Part shown: in pieces, positions 40 to 5,910 of the stretch | How the letters are laid out: each line of letters starts with the position of its first letter | How positions within the stretch are numbered: position 1 is the stretch's first letter | IMG/VR virus record: IMGVR_UViG_2802429232_000005 | DNA: 5,910 nucleotides | Reading direction: 5' to 3' (one strand) | DNA from: a virus | Taxonomy: Duplodnaviria > Heunggongvirae > Uroviricota > Caudoviricetes | Notes under the pieces: model-generated | What the model was told of the DNA's origin: nothing | What the model saw: only the letters and a program-made list of their open reading frames with translations | Database searches by the model: none | Position numbers and translations under genes: made by a program

Positions 40-360
40 CCAAATTCACTATGCCACTACATACAAAAGCCTTTCACACACTCCAGACAAACAACTCAAA
101 CACAACAACGAAAGGAATCGCCCACCTGCCATTACTCCATACACGGAGAAGAACAATCACCAAAACGACGAGAACACCCCATAGAAGAACCACCGCAAAA
201 CGAACGAAACCACATACACCGACAGAGAAAACAACACACCCAATTCACCAACAGAAATAGTCGCCGTATAGAACATTCTGGAAGGAGTGAGCATTAACGC
301 CTATAGAAAGGTTGAGACAGATAAAACACGAAGAAAACACAACATGTATAGCGAAGAAGC
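40..360 (+). other. A+C-rich, T/G-poor compositionally skewed tract; probably non-coding (candidate structured-free RNA or ssDNA spacer)
   Basis: Hand count of 61-240 gives roughly A 48-55%, C about 30%, T 3-12%, G 10-13% on the + strand. The ORFs called here (13..297, 36..260) start at GTG and translate to low-complexity T/Q/H/R/K/P-rich peptides. Confidence 0.5.
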
Positions 361-383
361 CAGGTATGTATAAGTGGGGAGGG

Positions 384-408
384 AAGGAGGGGTGTCGCCT
401 CCTTTTTC
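384..408 (+). terminator. Intrinsic terminator-like hairpin (AAGGAGG / CCTCCTT stem, 7-nt loop) followed by T5
   Basis: AAGGAGG (384-390) pairs with CCTCCTT (398-404); TTTTT run 403-407 directly follows the stem. Confidence 0.55.
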
Positions 409-471
409 GTATTTATTCAACTCCTGATTTTATCCCCCCGTAACACCCCTACGGTCAGCCTTCGGTCCATA

Positions 472-606
472 CAGGGAAAGGCTGCATCCTGCTACAGAAA
501 CGGCTGGGTTGCCTTCGGGGAACGGCTGGAGGTTTTCAGGGAAACGGTCGAGTTGCCTGTGTGGATTTCGGGAAAAGGCTCGATGCCGGTTCAGGAACGG
601 TGGTGT
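472..606. repeat. Cluster of about six degenerate ~22-bp direct repeats, core GGGAAACGGCTG (iteron-like)
   Basis: cagggaaaggctg (472), cagaaacggctgg (495), ggggaacggctgg (517), cagggaaacggtcg (537), cgggaaaaggctcg (568), caggaacggtggtg (591); spacing about 22-32 bp. No reverse-complement copies, so these are direct repeats, not a long hairpin. Confidence 0.6.
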
Positions 607-785
607 ACCGGTATAGCGAGAGGGAGAGTTGCGGCTGCCCACCTGTAATGTGCGGGAAGAAGAGAGGCGCTCACGTGCAGGCGGACTAACTTACCGCTGG
701 ATTCCCTCTGAATGCCCAGCTACAGCGTAATTGTGCCAGACAGCCAACGGGTCACAATCGATTTCAGTAGGTTTTCGGGGAGATG

Positions 786-830
786 ATTATTCTGCCCACC
801 AGCCACCTTAGGCCACTAAATCAGAATAAT
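786..830. repeat. Perfect 9-bp inverted repeat ATTATTCTG / CAGAATAAT with 27-bp spacer
   Basis: ATTATTCTG at 786-794 and its exact reverse complement CAGAATAAT at 822-830. Confidence 0.5.
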
Positions 831-917
831 GTAAAAAGTGTACTCGGTACTGAACCTGAAAACTCACTGCCAAAACCACATTCACCGGAATAAAATCCTT
901 TTTCGCCTGTGCGTTAT

Positions 918-957
918 TGCGATAATAACACCATTAAGAAAACATCTTGTTTAAGGA
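918..957 (+). promoter_or_regulatory. Conserved leader module A: extended -10 (TGcGATAAT), AACA-tct-TGTT palindrome, SD AAGGA
   Basis: TGCGATAAT 918-926; palindrome 941-951; AAGGA 953-957, 7 nt before ATG 965. The module recurs upstream of other genes in the array. Confidence 0.5.
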
Positions 958-964
958 TTGCTTT

Positions 965-1294
965 ATGTTTGCAAATATCGACATCAACCAAATTAAGAAA
1001 TTGACTCAAAAAGAGTTTGACCAGTTTTATGAGCTGGAAGGTTGGTCTTCCACTCTGATTAATTCAAGATGGGTGCTGGAACTGATGACTCGTGATGACG
1101 CACCTGCTTTGATGATCAGCGACCTGGGTGAAGATGCTGACTTTATGGATATGAGCGAATTTTGTGTGGACACATACAACCGCAGCCAGAAGTACTACTT
1201 CACATGCGATAGCGAAAATGACGTGATTTCTAAGGTCTATCTTCACCTCGTCCAGCATTGGGACGTTCAGGAGTTTCTTGAGGTATTCGCGTAA
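965..1294 (+). CDS. Hypothetical small acidic protein (109 aa)
   Basis: ATG 965 with SD AAGGA at 7-nt spacing. The ORF track's longer form starts at TTG 947 with no SD. Hand count about 21 D/E vs 8 K/R. Stop TAA 1292-1294, followed by hairpin 1304-1322. Confidence 0.6.
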   Translation: MFANIDINQIKKLTQKEFDQFYELEGWSSTLINSRWVLELMTRDDAPALMISDLGEDADFMDMSEFCVDTYNRSQKYYFTCDSENDVISKVYLHLVQHWDVQEFLEVFA

Positions 1295-1303
1295 TCACAA
1301 CCA

Positions 1304-1322
1304 AAGCCAGCATTGCTGGCTT
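1304..1322 (+). other. GC-rich hairpin AAGCCAGCA / TGCTGGCTT downstream of the 109-aa gene (no clear U-tract)
   Basis: Inverted repeat 1304-1312 / 1314-1322; same AAG-palindrome-CTTAA style as the hairpins at 2926 and 3397. Confidence 0.45.
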
Positions 1323-1391
1323 AACTTAATCTGTAGCCGCAGGGAAGAACCTGCATATCGCTCATGCGCCTGATTAATATGCTTTGTAGCC

Positions 1392-1443
1392 GTTTTCTTA
1401 CTGGTATTATTTACGCCATTGAGAAAACAAGTTGTTTACGGAG
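1392..1443 (+). promoter_or_regulatory. Conserved leader module D: extended -10 (TGgTATTAT), AAACAA-g-TTGTTT palindrome, SD GGAG
   Basis: TGGTATTAT 1392-1400; perfect 6-bp-arm palindrome 1425-1437; GGAG 1440-1443, 5 nt before ATG 1449. Confidence 0.45.
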
Positions 1444-1448
1444 TTGTG

Positions 1449-1760
1449 ATGAAAAAATCATTGGTTCTTGGTCTGGACAAAGACCAGAAGAGAAAAGAGA
1501 AGCCTGCACTGGTTGCTCAATTAACTTTGCTGGATATCGTTGCCAATGGGACCTCTATTCGTCTGTTCCGTGAAACAGCGGTGTCTTTCGATAAAAACAC
1601 CTTTACTCGTTATGTAATGAATGTTCGTCGCCAGCGTGGAAAAGGCTGGGTGGCATTTCAAAGAATGTGGCCGGAACATCAGCTCGAACTGGCTTTGATG
1701 GAAGTTAACCGCGTGGCCCAGCAAGAGATTCAGAGAGCATCAGTGATGGCAATAGCCTGA
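1449..1760 (+). CDS. Hypothetical small basic protein (103 aa); possible nucleic-acid-binding regulator
   Basis: ATG 1449 preceded by GGAG. The ORF-track start TTG 1419 lies inside the palindromic leader and is unlikely. Hand count about 18 K/R vs 10 D/E. Stop TGA 1758-1760, followed by a strong terminator. Confidence 0.55.
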   Translation: MKKSLVLGLDKDQKRKEKPALVAQLTLLDIVANGTSIRLFRETAVSFDKNTFTRYVMNVRRQRGKGWVAFQRMWPEHQLELALMEVNRVAQQEIQRASVMAIA

Positions 1761-1794
1761 TAATGTGCAAGTGGTAATTAGTCGACCGTACGAC

Positions 1795-1822
1795 AGCCCC
1801 GCCATCCTTACGGGGCTTTTTT
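1795..1822 (+). terminator. Rho-independent terminator (AGCCCCG / CGGGGCT stem, 9-nt loop, T6)
   Basis: Stem 1795-1801 / 1811-1817, followed by TTTTTT 1817-1822. Confidence 0.75.
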
Positions 1823-1849
1823 GTATTGTAAGTACATACTTACGATCAT
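1821..1849 (+). promoter_or_regulatory. Putative sigma70 promoter (TTGTAT-N17-GATCAT) with operator-like palindrome GTAAGTA-ca-TACTTAC in the spacer
   Basis: -35-like TTGTAT 1821-1826, -10-like GATCAT 1844-1849; 7-bp-arm palindrome 1828-1843 fills the spacer. Confidence 0.4.
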
Positions 1850-1886
1850 GGAATAGAAAAATAACCAATACACTACGGAGAGTGAA

Positions 1887-2282
1887 ATGACCGTTAAACG
1901 CGAAAAACTGACAGTTGATGTTTACTATGCCTCTGAAACCGCCGAAGGTAAGAATGTGGCAAAAATCACCGTTGTTACGTACAACACCGAAACTGGTGCC
2001 GAAGTCCAGGCCAGTACGATCGTGCGTAAAGGTGATGCCTCCGGCGGCGAGTACGCGACTCAATACCAGTCTATTTTCGATGCAACTGACCCGCTGCTGC
2101 TGAAAATCGAGAACTACTTCCGCCAGGTTGATGAAGAGGTGTTTGAAACCATGATGAATATGGTTAACACCGTATTCGCCTCCAGCCTGAATACCAACAC
2201 TACCTGGATTGGTCAGTACGGCCTGCGCATTACCTCTGGCATTCCTGCCGACACCTTAATCCCTGAAAGCGTATTCGCTTAA
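1887..2282 (+). CDS. Hypothetical protein (131 aa), mildly acidic
   Basis: ATG 1887 with SD GGAG 1877-1880 at 6-nt spacing. Stop TAA 2280-2282, followed by a strong hairpin terminator. Confidence 0.7.
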   Translation: MTVKREKLTVDVYYASETAEGKNVAKITVVTYNTETGAEVQASTIVRKGDASGGEYATQYQSIFDATDPLLLKIENYFRQVDEEVFETMMNMVNTVFASSLNTNTTWIGQYGLRITSGIPADTLIPESVFA

Positions 2283-2291
2283 TCCTCTTTA

Positions 2292-2318
2292 AATGGCGCG
2301 TAAACCGCGCCATTTTAT
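2292..2318 (+). terminator. Rho-independent terminator (AATGGCGCG / CGCGCCATT stem, loop TAAAC, T-rich tail)
   Basis: 9-bp perfect stem 2292-2300 / 2306-2314, followed by TTATTA. Confidence 0.7.
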
Positions 2319-2325
2319 TATGCCC

Positions 2326-2392
2326 GATAACAATTTGTTTTCTGCCTTATCTGATTTGTGAAAATGATTTCACTGAAGCAACTTAATAAGGA
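2326..2392 (+). promoter_or_regulatory. Leader module E: GATAAC, AACAA-t-TTGTT palindrome, shared TGCCTTATCT 10-mer, GTGAAA-atga-TTTCAC palindrome, SD AAGGA
   Basis: Palindromes at 2329-2339 and 2358-2373; TGCCTTATCT 2343-2352 is identical to 3042-3051; AAGGA 2388-2392, 7 nt before ATG 2400. Confidence 0.45.
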
Positions 2393-2399
2393 AACCATC

Positions 2400-2774
2400 A
2401 TGGGACTTGATATCTATATCGAGACGCAGCCTAAAAACGATCTGAATAACGAGGTATCCAGAAAGCAGGTTGCTTACTTCCGTAAGTTCAATGCGCTCGT
2501 TGGGTGGATGGAGCGCAACGTAGGTGAAGTCGAAAATTGTGAGCTTTTAGAATTAACGATGAATGACATTTGCCTTCTGAAAGCTCATTTGATGCACATA
2601 AACGAAAGCAATTGCGAAGAGTACTTGCCTACCCGGGAAGGTTTTTTCTTCGGCAGTCAGGAGTACGACGAAGGTTACTGGCATGATGTGGGGGAGTTGA
2701 AAGAGCTTGTGGAAGATCTGATTAAGAACCACGACTTTCACAATAATAGACTGACCTTCTGCGCCTGGTGGTAA
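2400..2774 (+). CDS. Hypothetical small acidic protein (124 aa)
   Basis: ATG 2400 with SD AAGGA. The ORF-track start GTG 2358 lies inside the operator-like palindrome. Hand count about 23 D/E vs 11 K/R. Stop TAA 2772-2774. Confidence 0.6.
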   Translation: MGLDIYIETQPKNDLNNEVSRKQVAYFRKFNALVGWMERNVGEVENCELLELTMNDICLLKAHLMHINESNCEEYLPTREGFFFGSQEYDEGYWHDVGELKELVEDLIKNHDFHNNRLTFCAWW

Positions 2775-2776
2775 AT

Positions 2777-2920
2777 ATGGGCGATTTCAAGAAACGCCTG
2801 AAGGAGAGAGCCGAGATGGTCAGAAAGCGAAACGCCTCTTCTGTCATCAGATACGCAAGGCAGTTTAGTCGCAACAACAAATCAGTTGAGGAAAAGATCC
2901 TTAGCGTAATCGGGCGATAA
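2777..2920 (+). CDS. Hypothetical very basic small protein (47 aa), possibly translationally coupled to the upstream acidic gene
   Basis: ATG 2777 lies 2 nt after the upstream stop, with GGTGG 5 nt upstream. Hand translation MGDFKKRLKERAEMVRKRNASSVIRYARQFSRNNKSVEEKILSVIGR, stop TAA 2918-2920. Not in the ORF track, presumably below its length cut-off. The stop sits 5 nt before hairpin repeat 2926, the same spacing as stop 3391 to hairpin 3397. Confidence 0.4.
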   Translation: MGDFKKRLKERAEMVRKRNASSVIRYARQFSRNNKSVEEKILSVIGR

Positions 2921-2925
2921 TTATT

Positions 2926-2956
2926 AAGGCCACCAGCATTGGTGGTCTTAAATGAC
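2926..2956 (+). repeat. Hairpin repeat copy 1: AAGGCCACCA-gcat-TGGTGGtCTT + AAATGAC
   Basis: 10-bp stem (one G-T wobble) with 4-nt loop; about 90% identical to the copy at 3397-3428. Confidence 0.6.
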
Positions 2957-3041
2957 TTTTAATAACCGAAGGTTAGTTTGAAACCTGGCTATCAACTTCC
3001 AGAACCTTTCTTGTGTATTCAGCCTGTATTAACTTCTTTTA

Positions 3042-3102
3042 TGCCTTATCTACACTGCGATAATTACACCAACAAGAAAACAACATGTTTACGCAGTGAG
3101 GA
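3042..3102 (+). promoter_or_regulatory. Conserved leader module B: TGCCTTATCT, extended -10 TGcGATAAT, AAACA-aca-TGTTT palindrome, SD GAGGA
   Basis: TGCGATAAT 3056-3064; palindrome 3078-3090 (core AACATGTT is perfect); GAGGA 3098-3102, 7 nt before ATG 3110. Confidence 0.5.
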
Positions 3103-3109
3103 TATGCTC

Positions 3110-3391
3110 ATGACTGATTTCACCATTACCCCTAAAGCACAAAATGTATTTCTTGAATCATGGCTGGACTTGCCGGAAACAGAACAGCAAGAAATGGATC
3201 ATGTGGATTATGACGAGCAGGTAAGCACGCGATTCTTCCACTTTGAGGGATGCGTTTACGACATTGTCGACTTCATGCGAGATGACCGCTTCCCTGAATG
3301 GCACGCAAGCTATCCACTAAACGCCTTTGCCATGCTGATGATCCGTGTGGATGATTCAGGGGATACCATCGACATCGGTCTGCTCCACTAA
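3110..3391 (+). CDS. Hypothetical small, strongly acidic protein (93 aa); DNA-mimic-like composition
   Basis: ATG 3110 with SD GAGGA at 7-nt spacing. In-frame ATG 3104 is too close to the SD, and the track's TTG 2978 start would run through the promoter module. Hand count about 20 D/E vs 5 K/R. Stop TAA 3389-3391. Confidence 0.6.
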   Translation: MTDFTITPKAQNVFLESWLDLPETEQQEMDHVDYDEQVSTRFFHFEGCVYDIVDFMRDDRFPEWHASYPLNAFAMLMIRVDDSGDTIDIGLLH

Positions 3392-3396
3392 AGGCT

Positions 3397-3428
3397 AAGG
3401 CCACCAATGCTGGTGGCCTTAAATGACC
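3397..3428 (+). repeat. Hairpin repeat copy 2: AAGGCCACCA-atgc-TGGTGGCCTT + AAATGACC
   Basis: Perfect 10-bp stem with 4-nt loop, 5 nt after the stop codon; direct repeat of 2926-2956. Confidence 0.6.
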
Positions 3429-3520
3429 ATCCTGTTTCCCTCAGGCTAATAACACCAACCTCTTACCTCCAGGCAACCGACAAACCCACCTGTTCCCGTC
3501 CGGCTACCGCAACTTTCCAC

Positions 3521-3588
3521 TTTGACGCCTTATTCGTACAACGATAATTAATACCAACAAGAAAACAATTTGTTATTTACGATAAGGA
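3521..3588 (+). promoter_or_regulatory. Conserved leader module C: sigma70-like promoter TTTGAC-N16-GATAAT, AACAA-t-TTGTT palindrome, SD AAGGA
   Basis: TTTGAC 3521-3526, GATAAT 3543-3548; palindrome 3564-3574; AAGGA 3584-3588, 7 nt before ATG 3596. Confidence 0.55.
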
Positions 3589-3595
3589 ATTAATC

Positions 3596-4078
3596 ATGAA
3601 TTTTATCGCTACTGTAAACGCACCCGCACATGGCAATATCGCTGTAACGTTCTCTGACATTGAAAAACGAGTACTTGGTGCATGGCGCGACAATGAGACG
3701 GTAGAACTGTCAGCACAAGAAAAATGCATTATTGCACGCGACATCATTGGCAATCGTCGTTACTCGCGGGTATTTGAGAAAGCGTATGTGGTAAATTCTG
3801 GATTCGGAACGTTCGTCTTTCCGGTGCGCTCCGGGCGATTCTGCCAGTCCAAGCTGATTGAGTTCGCTACGCAGATTTCTGTCTGGATTAAAACTCAATC
3901 GTCGTTCAAATTTTCCGACGATGAAGCAGTATCGCAGGGGATGCGGATCGCCAACAATGCGATTAAATGCAAAAACATTACGTATACCGCTGGCGTTGAT
4001 ACATGGAAACTGTTTTGCGCTAACTTTATGCTGAACGTATACGCCAGCAACCGCATCCACATCCTTGATGGCGTGTAA
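3596..4078 (+). CDS. Hypothetical protein (160 aa)
   Basis: ATG 3596 with SD and a near-consensus promoter upstream. Stop TAA 4076-4078, followed by a stable hairpin. Confidence 0.7.
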   Translation: MNFIATVNAPAHGNIAVTFSDIEKRVLGAWRDNETVELSAQEKCIIARDIIGNRRYSRVFEKAYVVNSGFGTFVFPVRSGRFCQSKLIEFATQISVWIKTQSSFKFSDDEAVSQGMRIANNAIKCKNITYTAGVDTWKLFCANFMLNVYASNRIHILDGV

Positions 4079-4080
4079 CT

Positions 4081-4109
4081 GAGAAGAGGGCCAGAAACGG
4101 CCCTTTCTC
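4081..4109 (+). terminator. Stable hairpin (GAGAAGAGGGCC / GGCCCTTTCTC, loop AGAAAC) after the 160-aa gene; weak U-tract
   Basis: About 11-bp stem with a 1-nt bulge; the loop carries the CAGAAACGGC repeat motif; the T-rich tail lies partly inside the stem. Confidence 0.4.
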
Positions 4110-4123
4110 TATAGCCACCAGCT

Positions 4124-4206
4124 GCCGCAGGGAAATTTTCAGAAACGGCAAGGAACGCATTCATGAGCCGACGGGAAACGGCCAGGATTTTTTCGGGAAA
4201 CGGCTG
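4124..4206. repeat. Second cluster of GGGAAACGGC-type direct repeats (4-5 degenerate units)
   Basis: cagggaaa (4129), cagaaacggc (4140), aggaacgc (4151), cgggaaacggcc (4172), cgggaaacggctg (4194). GCCGCAGGGAA at 4124-4134 also occurs at 1336-1346. Confidence 0.55.
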
Positions 4207-4334
4207 CATTCGCCTTTGTGTAGAAAAAAACATCGGGAAGCTGGTGGAATCCAACCAGCGGTTGTCGGACAGGTGAGCGGGGAAAATTATGATGACTTTC
4301 GTCGCCTGAGACATCCAGATTTCTTTCGTAGCAT

Positions 4335-4388
4335 AATCACATACGTGATTAAGTGGTGTGATTATGTGAAAAATCACGCGCACATAAT
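4335..4388. promoter_or_regulatory. Cluster of GTGATT / AATCAC inverted repeats; candidate operator or origin-like site
   Basis: AATCAC-atac-GTGATT at 4335-4350; ATTATGTG (4361-4368) and CACATAAT (4381-4388) form a perfect 8-bp inverted repeat; four GTGATT/AATCAC hexamers in alternating orientation. Confidence 0.35.
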
Positions 4389-4420
4389 ACGCGAGCGGAT
4401 ACGGAACAAAACAAAATGCC

Positions 4421-4448
4421 GATCCGCGCCGACAAATAAACGCGGATC
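4421..4448. other. Perfect 8-bp inverted repeat GATCCGCG / CGCGGATC with 12-nt spacer, containing two GATC sites
   Basis: GATCCGCG 4421-4428 and CGCGGATC 4441-4448. Confidence 0.4.
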
Positions 4449-4618
4449 ATAAAGCAAGACTAAAAGCCAATGATTAACCATACACCATAACGCAATATAA
4501 CGCGTTTTAAGCGCGTTAATGCGCTAAGTAATGGGTATATGCTGGTAAGGATATAAAAGCTCGTCTATGGCGTTATTTTTGCGCTTATTTTTATATTGTT
4601 GGAGTGAGTCAAAGACAA

Positions 4619-4642
4619 TAAAAAAAGCGCCATCATTGGCGC
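4619..4642 (-). terminator. Rho-independent terminator on the minus strand (GCGCCA / TGGCGC stem, then T-run on the minus strand)
   Basis: Stem 4627-4632 / 4637-4642; the A-run at 4619-4626 on + is a U-run after the hairpin on the minus strand. Confidence 0.6.
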
Positions 4643-4666
4643 GTTATGGTGGAAGTATTGGAAACG

Positions 4667-4689
4667 AAAAAAGCGCCCATAGTGGGCGC
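4667..4689 (-). terminator. Rho-independent terminator on the minus strand (GCGCCCA / TGGGCGC stem, loop TAG, T6 on the minus strand)
   Basis: Stem 4673-4679 / 4683-4689 preceded on + by AAAAAA 4667-4672; lies just downstream of the 76-aa gene stop. Confidence 0.7.
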
Positions 4690-4695
4690 TCGATT

Positions 4696-4926
4696 TTATT
4701 TATGTAAACTGATTTCAAATCCCATTTCTACAAACGCTTTTAACATTAAAAATATATCAGCGTCATTCACGTCTGCTTTTTTTCGCTCCTGGTCGCTCAA
4801 TAAGTCAATTTTGCGCGTCGTTTCATCTATAAGCTCGACTGCGCGCCCAGCGTAACCAGCGATCCCAGCGATGCGATTAACAAAATATTCATTGCGCACG
4901 TTAACGCCAGCGATAATCATAAACAT
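4696..4926 (-). CDS. Hypothetical small protein (76 aa)
   Basis: ATG (complement of 4924-4926) with SD AAGGAG (complement of 4934-4939) at 7-nt spacing. Flanked by near-identical terminator hairpins; AT-rich codon usage like the adjacent 216-aa gene. Confidence 0.6.
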   Translation of the reverse strand: MFMIIAGVNVRNEYFVNRIAGIAGYAGRAVELIDETTRKIDLLSDQERKKADVNDADIFLMLKAFVEMGFEISLHK

Positions 4927-4939
4927 GATTAAGCTCCTT

Positions 4940-4960
4940 AAAAGCGCCCATAGTGGGCGC
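4940..4960 (-). terminator. Rho-independent terminator on the minus strand between the 216-aa and 76-aa genes; near-identical to 4667-4689
   Basis: Stem GCGCCCA 4944-4950 / TGGGCGC 4954-4960, loop TAG. On the minus strand it is followed by TTTT and then immediately the AAGGAG SD of the 76-aa gene. Confidence 0.65.
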
Positions 4961-4973
4961 CAGATTCCATTAA

Positions 4974-5624
4974 TTACGCTTTGAAAGCATCAGCCAGATA
5001 GTTATAGAAATCATTTTTAATAAAGCGATATTGCTGCGTACCAGCTTTTGCGCTTCCCATTCCTTTGACTTTCTCAACAAGTCCAAGACGTTCGCAAAGA
5101 TTGATCAACTGGTTGGCTTGAGTATAGCCAGCGTCCAATTTAATTTCGCACGCTTTTTTAGCTTCATTCATTAAATCGAAAACAGCGCCATTAGTGAACG
5201 TGTCGATCTCGTCGTTAATCATATCGATTAAAGCGAATACACGAGATCCTGACATATCAGCGATGGAGTAAACGCATTTACCAGATTTAATTGATTTAAC
5301 CAGATAAACCAGTTTTTCCAGTGAATAACTATTAGTCATTGCATCACGAAAAAATACTTCTGGCGCTTGTTTACTTGCTTTAATCGCATAGTAGAAAACA
5401 GAGCATAATTTTTCATCTTCTACAGCGTTTACAACGTTGTTGATGAAGTAAGCAAGTTTAGTGGTCGCAGCTTGCATATTTGCTTTGTCTGCTTTAGTGT
5501 GCGTACCATTTTTATAATGTTCGTTATATGTTTGAGTTGCCAGATCTGCTTTTTCGCGCAGCTCGTCGGATACAATGGATGCAGCTTCAATGATGGATTT
5601 TTTAGAAATGATAATGTTAGCCAT
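4974..5624 (-). CDS. Hypothetical protein (216 aa), Lys/Ala-rich, AT-rich codon usage; family not recognised
   Basis: ATG (complement of 5622-5624) with SD AAGGA (complement of 5633-5637) at 8-nt spacing; long uninterrupted ORF; terminator directly downstream. Confidence 0.7.
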   Translation of the reverse strand: MANIIISKKSIIEAASIVSDELREKADLATQTYNEHYKNGTHTKADKANMQAATTKLAYFINNVVNAVEDEKLCSVFYYAIKASKQAPEVFFRDAMTNSYSLEKLVYLVKSIKSGKCVYSIADMSGSRVFALIDMINDEIDTFTNGAVFDLMNEAKKACEIKLDAGYTQANQLINLCERLGLVEKVKGMGSAKAGTQQYRFIKNDFYNYLADAFKA

Positions 5625-5760
5625 GATAATATCCTTATGAAAGTTTAAAATTTAACTCAAGAAAGAAAGTGTTTACTCTCGTTCCTGATGCGTTCAATTA
5701 TCGATACGCAAAAAAAGATTGCAAGTATTTTTTTAAATTTTTTGCAGGGACGAAAGTCCT
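5625..5760 (-). promoter_or_regulatory. AT-rich upstream region of the 216-aa gene (promoter not resolved); contains a GGAC-GAAA-GTCC mini-hairpin
   Basis: About 30% GC, A/T runs, position relative to the start codon; GGACGAAAGTCC at about 5749-5760. Confidence 0.3.
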
Positions 5761-5910
5761 AGAAATAAAATCGAGATCGTCGAAGGTGTTCCCTAAATAA
5801 ATAATTAATTCCGGCTTATAACCTTATATATTTATACGGGGTAGAATTGGAGGTGTATTTAATAATTGGCATTTAAAAAAATAACCGAACTTAGCCTGTT
5901 ATTACACTTA

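Follow-up and report, generated by a model that had tools for sequence, protein, structure and literature searches.

The viral DNA stretch IMGVR_UViG_2802429232_000005 (5,910 nt, called the window in what follows) is part of a phage-plasmid of the SSU5 type. Its positions 62–5910 are 97% identical to positions 94923–100774 of the E. coli LF82 plasmid pLF82 (phage Cyrano, OV696614.1), whose complete genome measures 108 kb. Phage-plasmids of this type, among them Yersinia pestis pMT1 and Salmonella Typhi pHCM2, occur widely in clinical Enterobacterales and carry resistance genes, and little is known of their cis-acting control sites beyond the RepA replicon. Some part of the window is matched by 951 plasmid records (Klebsiella, Escherichia, Enterobacter, Yersinia, Salmonella and others). 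In the window an array of seven small genes lies between two clusters, A and B, of a short repeat with the word GGGAAACGG. These clusters are a real, conserved and family-specific pair of cis-elements, in kind clustered direct repeats of the putative binding-site type.

Two repeat clusters at the borders of a gene array

The features of the locus are as follows.

381–408, plus strand: intrinsic terminator GGAGGGGTGTCGCCTCC with a T-run, about 60 nt ahead of cluster A, at which the CA-rich transcript from upstream ends
467–606, plus strand: cluster A, six same-strand units GGGAAA(C/A)GG(C/T) at 474–482, 495–504, 517–526, 539–548, 570–579 and 592–601
965–4078, plus strand: array of seven small genes (965–1294, 1449–1760, 1887–2282, 2400–2774, 2777–2920, 3110–3391 and 3596–4078)
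1336–1346, plus strand: isolated 11-mer GCCGCAGGGAA within a small hairpin, GCAGG-gaagaa-CCTGC; not a constrained unit
4081–4109, plus strand: intrinsic terminator hairpin of the last array gene (160-aa product), with motif-like CAGAAACGG in its loop
4115–4122, minus strand: Chi octamer GCTGGTGG, directly left of cluster B
4124–4206, plus strand: cluster B, with GCCGCAGGGAAA at 4124–4135, CAGAAACGGC at 4140–4149, a weak AGGAACGCAT at 4151–4160 and perfect copies of GGGAAACGGC at 4173–4182 and 4195–4204
4207–4695, no strand assigned: noncoding stretch that separates cluster B from the convergent operon, with conservation of about 78% within the family
4240–4247, plus strand: Chi octamer, directly right of cluster B and oriented toward it
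4974–5624, minus strand: gene convergent to the array; its 216-aa product has a C-terminal winged-helix domain and is the best candidate for a protein binding the repeats

The units of cluster A follow each other at start-to-start distances of 21, 22, 22, 31 and 22 bp. Cluster B includes two perfect units and two or three weaker ones, with a T-tract spacer between units and GGGAAA alone at 4130–4135. Both clusters begin just past intrinsic terminators.

An earlier note on this DNA had described cluster B as related to repeats on the other side of the gene array and placed directly after the last gene, and had asked whether the likeness exceeds what short G/A-rich motifs would show by chance. 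Cluster B indeed begins 46 nt past the stop codon of 3596–4078, and its similarity to cluster A lies far above chance. With up to two mismatches allowed, GGGAAACGGC has 15 matches in the window (4.3 ± 2.2 expected), a number reached by none of 200 shuffles, and all matches inside the clusters are on the plus strand. Between A and B there are 30 pairs of 10-mers identical at nine or more of ten positions, compared with 0.67 ± 1.27 expected from dinucleotide shuffles of both regions (0/1000). The top local alignment, which joins 516–563 to 4172–4220, scores 31 against a null of 19.4 ± 2.2 with a maximum of 28, and it takes in two units, the TTTTC spacer and a GCCTnTGTG flank. Since both the pair counts and the alignment exceed the shuffles, G/A-rich composition is excluded as the cause of the similarity.

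Two further sites that the earlier note had added to the family do exist but are not constrained members of it. The 11-mer shared by 4124 and 1336 occurs at both places; the copy at 1336 is present solely in close E. coli-type relatives, where its GGGAA varies (GGGAG, GGGCA, GGGCT), and it is missing the ACGG half, for which reasons it is not counted as a unit and was rejected as a third site. Likewise, motif-like CAGAAACGGC does stand at 4092–4101 in the loop of the 4081–4109 hairpin. The stem of this hairpin is conserved but the loop motif is not, being absent in the distant relative L076.

The clusters are specific to this locus and this family. At one mismatch or fewer, matches in the complete Cyrano genome cluster at these two loci only, and in the complete pMT1 genome at cluster B only. 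A scan of IMG/VR for GGGAAACGG-N13-GGGAAACGG returned 66 loci, 63 of which are homologous to the window. The repeats were not described in the searchable literature, including papers on phage-plasmids and the Cyrano paper, nor was the motif found there in a relevant context.

The content of the array varies between the conserved clusters. Clustering of the open reading frames (ORFs) lying between A and B identifies 103-, 131- and 160-aa families as core throughout, together with variable families of 109, 124, 47, 93, about 71 and about 72 aa, and several genes are unique to L076. Elements thus differ in gene content between the same two repeat clusters, a point that the earlier note had proposed to check. 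Pfam gave no match for the seven array gene products, and their PHROG families are all of unknown function.

Conservation of the word and of its placement

Conservation of cluster B (window 4088–4228) amounts to about 78% in Yersinia pMT1, Salmonella pHCM2 and elements from Klebsiella, Enterobacter and Cronobacter, and cluster A is conserved in the same elements except pMT1. Both clusters, on the same strand, are present in 38 loci (the window counted) as well as in SSU5 itself and further genome contigs, at A-to-B distances of 1.5 to 5.1 kb. The pMT1 lineage is the only one in which at least 4.5 kb is available upstream of B and cluster A is nonetheless lacking. There, a large IS1541-linked deletion has fused the RuvC-like gene to the 93-aa array gene, with loss of cluster A. 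The module delimited by paired protein-binding arrays that the earlier note had suggested is therefore borne out in its architecture, by the co-occurrence of the clusters, on the same strand, in every SSU5-like locus with enough sequence except those of the pMT1 lineage, and by the variable cargo; the binding of a protein is the part that we infer.

The viral loci were retrieved by the exact tandem pattern, so that the invariance of those two units among them is partly built in. The loci selected by homology (L001, L002, L005–L009, L076, L077, L080–L084 and L086) are unbiased in this respect; all keep both perfect B units with the sole exception of L077, which has one change in one unit. In the main lineage, units are spaced by 22 bp (115 cases), 31 bp (23) or 44 bp (18), and relatives differ in how many units cluster A has, always by whole steps of about 22 bp. 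L009, L002 and L056 show clean losses of one or two 22-bp units (22, 23 and 44 nt) in cluster A, which suggests slippage or unit-wise recombination inside the array of repeats.

More distant elements retain the word in a different arrangement. In L076, whose 160-aa and 216-aa proteins are 51% and 49% identical to those of the window, the left border has four exact copies of GGGAAACGG and the right border has two, spaced by 24–34 bp and with diverged flanks. L089 and L090 were found by a profile search with the 216-aa protein, to which theirs are 33% identical. Their gene order is terminase, two ParB_N genes, helicase, 216-aa gene and then the convergent array, and copies of GGGAAACGG, GGGGAAAGG or GGGAAAAGG stand at both array borders, packed at 7–11 nt in L089. 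The AT-rich L087 has no clear array and carries just two GGGAA(A/C)GTTTTCCC palindromes, which are possibly terminators.

What is conserved is the word and its placement at the two borders, whereas unit number and spacing are not. As judged from sequence comparison, an exact 9-mer amid diverged flanks, spacers and spacing, next to proteins only 33–50% identical, indicates purifying selection on the motif itself. The other possibility raised in the earlier note, degenerate remnants of a duplicated element, finds no support: the persistence of the 9-mer while flanks and spacing diverge speaks strongly against decaying remnants of a duplication.

Two relatives carry unexpected labels. The contig L080 (JAEWTL010000044.1), binned as a Bacillota metagenome-assembled genome, has both clusters and encodes a 160-aa protein with 99% identity to its E. 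coli-type counterpart, and the protein P0091, which bears the label Finegoldia magna, shares 91% identity with the 216-aa protein. Both probably come from mis-binned enterobacterial phage-plasmid contigs.

Possible functions of the clusters

We tentatively favour, at a little short of an even chance, the view that A and B are paired site arrays for a single element-encoded, sequence-specific DNA-binding protein at the borders of the gene array, which they would likely bridge, insulate or co-regulate. The two same-strand arrays of one 9–10-bp word, GGGAAA(C/A)GG(C), constitute a lineage-wide cis-element pair of SSU5-type phage-plasmids, each placed just past an intrinsic terminator and each bordering a variable array of small, individually promoted genes. 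The units would be double-stranded-DNA sites for the protein. The main-lineage spacings of 22, 31 and 44 bp correspond to whole helical turns, so that the bound protein could oligomerise along one face of the DNA, and with two arrays it could bridge both borders. The likely effect would be an accessory gene array that is looped, insulated or co-regulated. A role at the level of DNA is favoured because the clusters follow terminators and are without promoter, folding signal or Rfam match. A promoter scan of the window found no consensus promoter overlapping or preceding either cluster, the Rfam search returned no match even at E = 1, and RNA folding is no better than that of shuffles for either region (z = –1.66 for B with the terminator included, z = +0.52 for A).

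As the binder, the strongest candidate is the 216-aa winged-helix protein (CYRAN_113 in Cyrano, homologous to YPO_RS00685 of pMT1), which is conserved and whose gene lies convergently beside cluster B in a minus-strand operon (4974–5624 and 4696–4926). Its winged helix resembles those of ORC/Cdc6 proteins as much as those of regulators. Two ParB_N proteins, encoded about 5 kb off by genes which are as syntenic as the 216-aa gene and which sit with ABC-type ATPase genes beside terminase genes, are alternative candidates. The 160-aa protein was rejected as a binder: it has no significant fold match, and L087, in which synteny is kept, is without a gene of that size at the array end.

Several observations weigh against this view of the clusters. 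There is no copy of the motif in the candidate binder's own promoter region (5625–5910), and with no consensus promoter overlapping either cluster a classical operator role is not evident. Helical phasing is lost in the distant lineages (24–34 bp in L076, 7–11 bp in L089), and packing of units at 7 nt fits badly with one winged-helix protein per unit. L087 keeps a homologue of the 216-aa protein yet shows no clear array. pMT1 is stably maintained with cluster B alone, which implies that neither cluster A nor bridging between A and B is needed for plasmid maintenance. Finally, retrieval by exact pattern leaves the homology-selected loci as the unbiased evidence for invariance of the two units.

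Among looping operators, the closest parallel is OL/OR of phage lambda, where two site clusters bracket genes of a temperate element (cI-rexA-rexB), as the clusters do here at 1.5–5 kb from each other. As in lambda, two clusters stand on one replicon; here the same word is present at both and clustered nowhere else, and the two clusters co-occur across the family. Unlike the lambda operators, the units are direct repeats rather than palindromes and no overlapping promoters are seen. A sigma-54 or sigma-70 promoter within the two-unit core was considered and rejected, there being no match by eye and none in the promoter scan.

A bolder proposal, which we regard as doubtful, is that the GGGAAACGG arrays and the winged-helix protein (or the ParB_N pair) form an unrecognised long-range bridging or insulating system around a hypervariable, Chi-studded array or, alternatively, that they represent the lytic origin of the family. 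If true, such a bridging system could keep the array silent while the element is a plasmid, or could tag it for exchange by recombination, and the enclosed genes would be small early or accessory ones, possibly involved in host takeover or anti-defence. The pair of clusters at the borders of the main variable block provides a testable handle on the regulation, insulation or exchange of accessory genes, or on the start of lytic replication, and draws attention to an uncharacterised winged-helix protein that may be a regulator. Were the clusters ordinary operators of a local regulator, the result would be a useful annotation and not new biology.

Among known systems the arrays look most like plasmid iterons. 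As in P1 oriR/incA, F ori2/incC and RepFIB, they are direct repeats on one strand that recur about every 22 bp, in two sets flanking genes; unit number varies by whole units, and one set is dispensable for plasmid maintenance. The tandem same-strand arrangement at about 22 bp is found here in the main lineage. The differences are a conserved core of only 9–10 bp, sets lying 1.5–5 kb apart around a variable multi-gene array, spacing that is not kept in distant lineages, and the lack of a Rep-family initiator between or beside the sets. The repeats do not match initiator sites beside a rep gene: the true RepA iterons, 35 kb off, are unrelated. Membership among the iterons fails because no Rep-type initiator is associated and the RepA iterons differ.

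The clusters could, in the same vein, belong to a second, lytic replication origin, with B as iterons beside an A+T-rich noncoding stretch and A as a distal control or handcuffing set comparable to those of P1 oriR/incA and F ori2/incC. We consider this unlikely. In its favour are the classical 22-bp period of the main lineage and the 500–600-bp noncoding region adjoining cluster B, which is about 78% conserved and contains short repeats, one DnaA-box-like site and a part with 63% A+T. Cyrano encodes its own replication proteins (helicase, primase, Pol III alpha and UvsW/UvsY/gp32-type proteins), with no lytic origin among its annotations, and the neighbouring winged-helix protein is as ORC/Cdc6-like as it is regulator-like. 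P1 tolerates the loss of incA, as pMT1 does that of cluster A. However, the RepA replicon (repA at 60.6–61.7 kb in Cyrano) lies 35 kb from the locus and its flanking repeats are of the CTCTATAGTGGATA type, a different word from GGGAAACGG and without relation to it, by which a reading of the clusters as RepA iterons was also rejected. The helicase and primase genes, around which initiator and origin are usually found in phages, are about 65 kb distant, spacing is not conserved in distant lineages, and no initiator family, Rep domains included, was detected in any adjacent protein. The locus also has no GC-skew feature, although GC skew is uninformative as an origin marker here because it follows transcription.

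An element acting at the level of RNA is improbable in our view. In this case the G/A-rich words in read-through transcripts would bind an FljA-like protein with Sm/Hfq-like domains, or CsrA by way of GGA, and would act as a sponge or in 3′-UTR (untranslated region) control. Two transcription units lie upstream of the repeat units, all of which are on the transcribed sense strand; each repeat unit contains GGA, and the variable spacing (7–11 nt in L089) would suit single-strand recognition. The gene that borders the window on the right (Cyrano L001 13858–14379, minus strand) is of the FljA family (PF03614, E 1e-80) and its product has a weakly Hfq-like C-terminus; FljA is a post-transcriptional repressor. 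Against this, both clusters stand past intrinsic terminators and no promoter-like site precedes them, folding and Rfam are negative as described above, a GCCG/CGGC stem is possible for only some of the units, and CsrA does not need the conserved AACGG. In addition, L076 keeps the motif unchanged with an FljA-like protein of only 34% identity, and no FljA-like gene was called in L087.

The resemblance to the CsrB/RsmZ sponge RNAs lies in the many G/A-rich words with GGA that recur about every 20 nt on a single strand. A CsrA sponge, considered on account of the GGA cores and of a likeness to a CsrB segment, was rejected: sponge RNAs have their own promoter and terminator and present GGA in hairpin loops, whereas the clusters have no promoter, lie after terminators and lack hairpin-loop presentation, an Rfam match and a folding signal, and their conserved word is longer than CsrA needs. 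On the negative Rfam and folding results a known RNA family or structured RNA was likewise rejected. BoxB-like or GNRA pentaloop hairpins were discarded as well, stems being only 2–4 bp for most units, and so was a G-quadruplex, the GGG runs being about 22 nt apart in the main lineage and not a conserved property.

It is very improbable that the clusters have no dedicated function, either as remnants of a duplicated segment kept as borders for swapping cargo or as C-rich, G-poor antisense stretches which load Rho against convergent transcription. A and B do have a homologous core of two units (about 48 bp) in common and enclose mosaic cargo, and Chi is very dense and brackets cluster B. With G at 0.33–0.37 and C at 0.20–0.22 on the plus strand, antisense RNA would resemble a rut site, and both clusters lie between convergent genes in several lineages. 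But neutral remnants would not hold an exact 9-mer while spacers and flanks diverge, the motif is repeated anew in each lineage in a differing number and spacing, and the word is conserved in sequence, which rut sites are not known to be.

A partition centromere or segregation site bound by ParB_N or by a TubR-like centromere-binding protein is most unlikely, in spite of the clustered short repeats, variable in number and sometimes in two blocks, that the clusters share with F sopC, R1 parC, TubR tubC and the omega-protein heptads (which are bound by winged-helix or ribbon-helix-helix proteins and whose packing L089 recalls): neither cluster adjoins a par operon or a partition NTPase gene, the Cyrano ParA operon is at 29.3 kb, pMT1 has the same cluster B with a different partition locus (68–70 kb, a gene for a 401-aa AAA ATPase next to a ParB-family gene), and the position of the ParB_N genes with ABC-type ATPase genes beside terminase genes suggests another role for them. 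Nor are the units integron or cassette sites, for they are direct repeats found at the outer borders only, the integrase gene is at 41 kb in Cyrano, and the cassette borders instead carry promoters, terminators and Chi sites.

Other signals of the locus

Most array genes carry their own extended –10 promoter, a AAGAAAACAAnTTGTTTAA palindrome and a terminator. The palindrome is present at 926–951, 1411–1436, 3064–3089 and 3549–3574, with an inverted copy at 2327–2343, and in most of these genes it stands between an extended –10 box (TGnGATAAT) and the ribosome-binding site. It is found at no fewer than 13 Cyrano promoters, including those of ParA, the helicase, CYRAN_58, _85, _87 and _101, and marks a genome-wide regulon distinct from the clusters. 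Probably it serves as operator for a global repressor or forms a 5′-UTR hairpin.

Exact Chi octamers number five in the window against 0.09 expected: 796–803, 2930–2937 and 4115–4122 on the minus strand, 3409–3416 and 4240–4247 on the plus strand. The pair around cluster B points inward, and two octamers lie in the stems of intergenic terminator hairpins. The whole Cyrano genome has 25 copies (mean 2.4 for permuted octamers, rank 1 of 168), and the arrays of the Klebsiella element L006 and of the distant L076 are Chi-dense too. Dense Chi could reflect protection from RecBCD or recombination hot spots at cassette borders.

A 134-aa ORF is annotated over cluster A in Cyrano (CYRAN_104; equivalent to 366–770 of the window), and ORFs are called there in PhiR41_1 and L076 as well. 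Since the ORF is broken in the window, these calls are probably spurious.

Upstream of cluster A runs a CA-rich, G/T-poor noncoding tract of about 700 nt, whose 3′ part occupies 62–300 of the window and which is closed by the terminator at 381–408. Its counterparts lie at about 7816–8300 in Cyrano (L001), about 2940–3640 in L006 and about 2600–3300 in L008, and the tract is conserved in all lineages, L089 and L090 included. It contains three or four copies of GCCATTAC(C/T)C..ATACACGGAGAAGAAC about 90–135 nt apart and is preceded by promoter-like boxes and a AAACAAnTTGTTT palindrome. The tract is probably a long noncoding RNA. Positions 1–61 of the window have no match in Cyrano or other close relatives and every match begins at 62, from which it appears that the tract has been interrupted or replaced in the source element.

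In the noncoding stretch at 4207–4695 there are short repeats of ATAACGC/TAAAACGC and two of GCGYTTATTTTT, the A+T content is 63% at 4440–4620, and a match to the DnaA-box-like TTWTNCACA stands at 4365–4373 on the minus strand. Minus-strand terminators lie at 4627–4642 and 4671–4691, and minus-strand terminator-like hairpins at 4420–4449 and 4377–4393 could end a small RNA. GGGTAATGGGTAT (at about 4525–4537), which is complementary to the core of the CA-rich tract, is invariant in this stretch, and at the equivalent place L076 has a tandem array of the 8-bp CTAAAYKG (7740–7800).

The FljA-family protein encoded just beyond the window is annotated as a transcriptional regulator and looks like two Sm/Hfq-like barrels; L091 carries two tandem copies. 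A phage-plasmid copy of the flagellin translational repressor could silence the fliC gene of the host.
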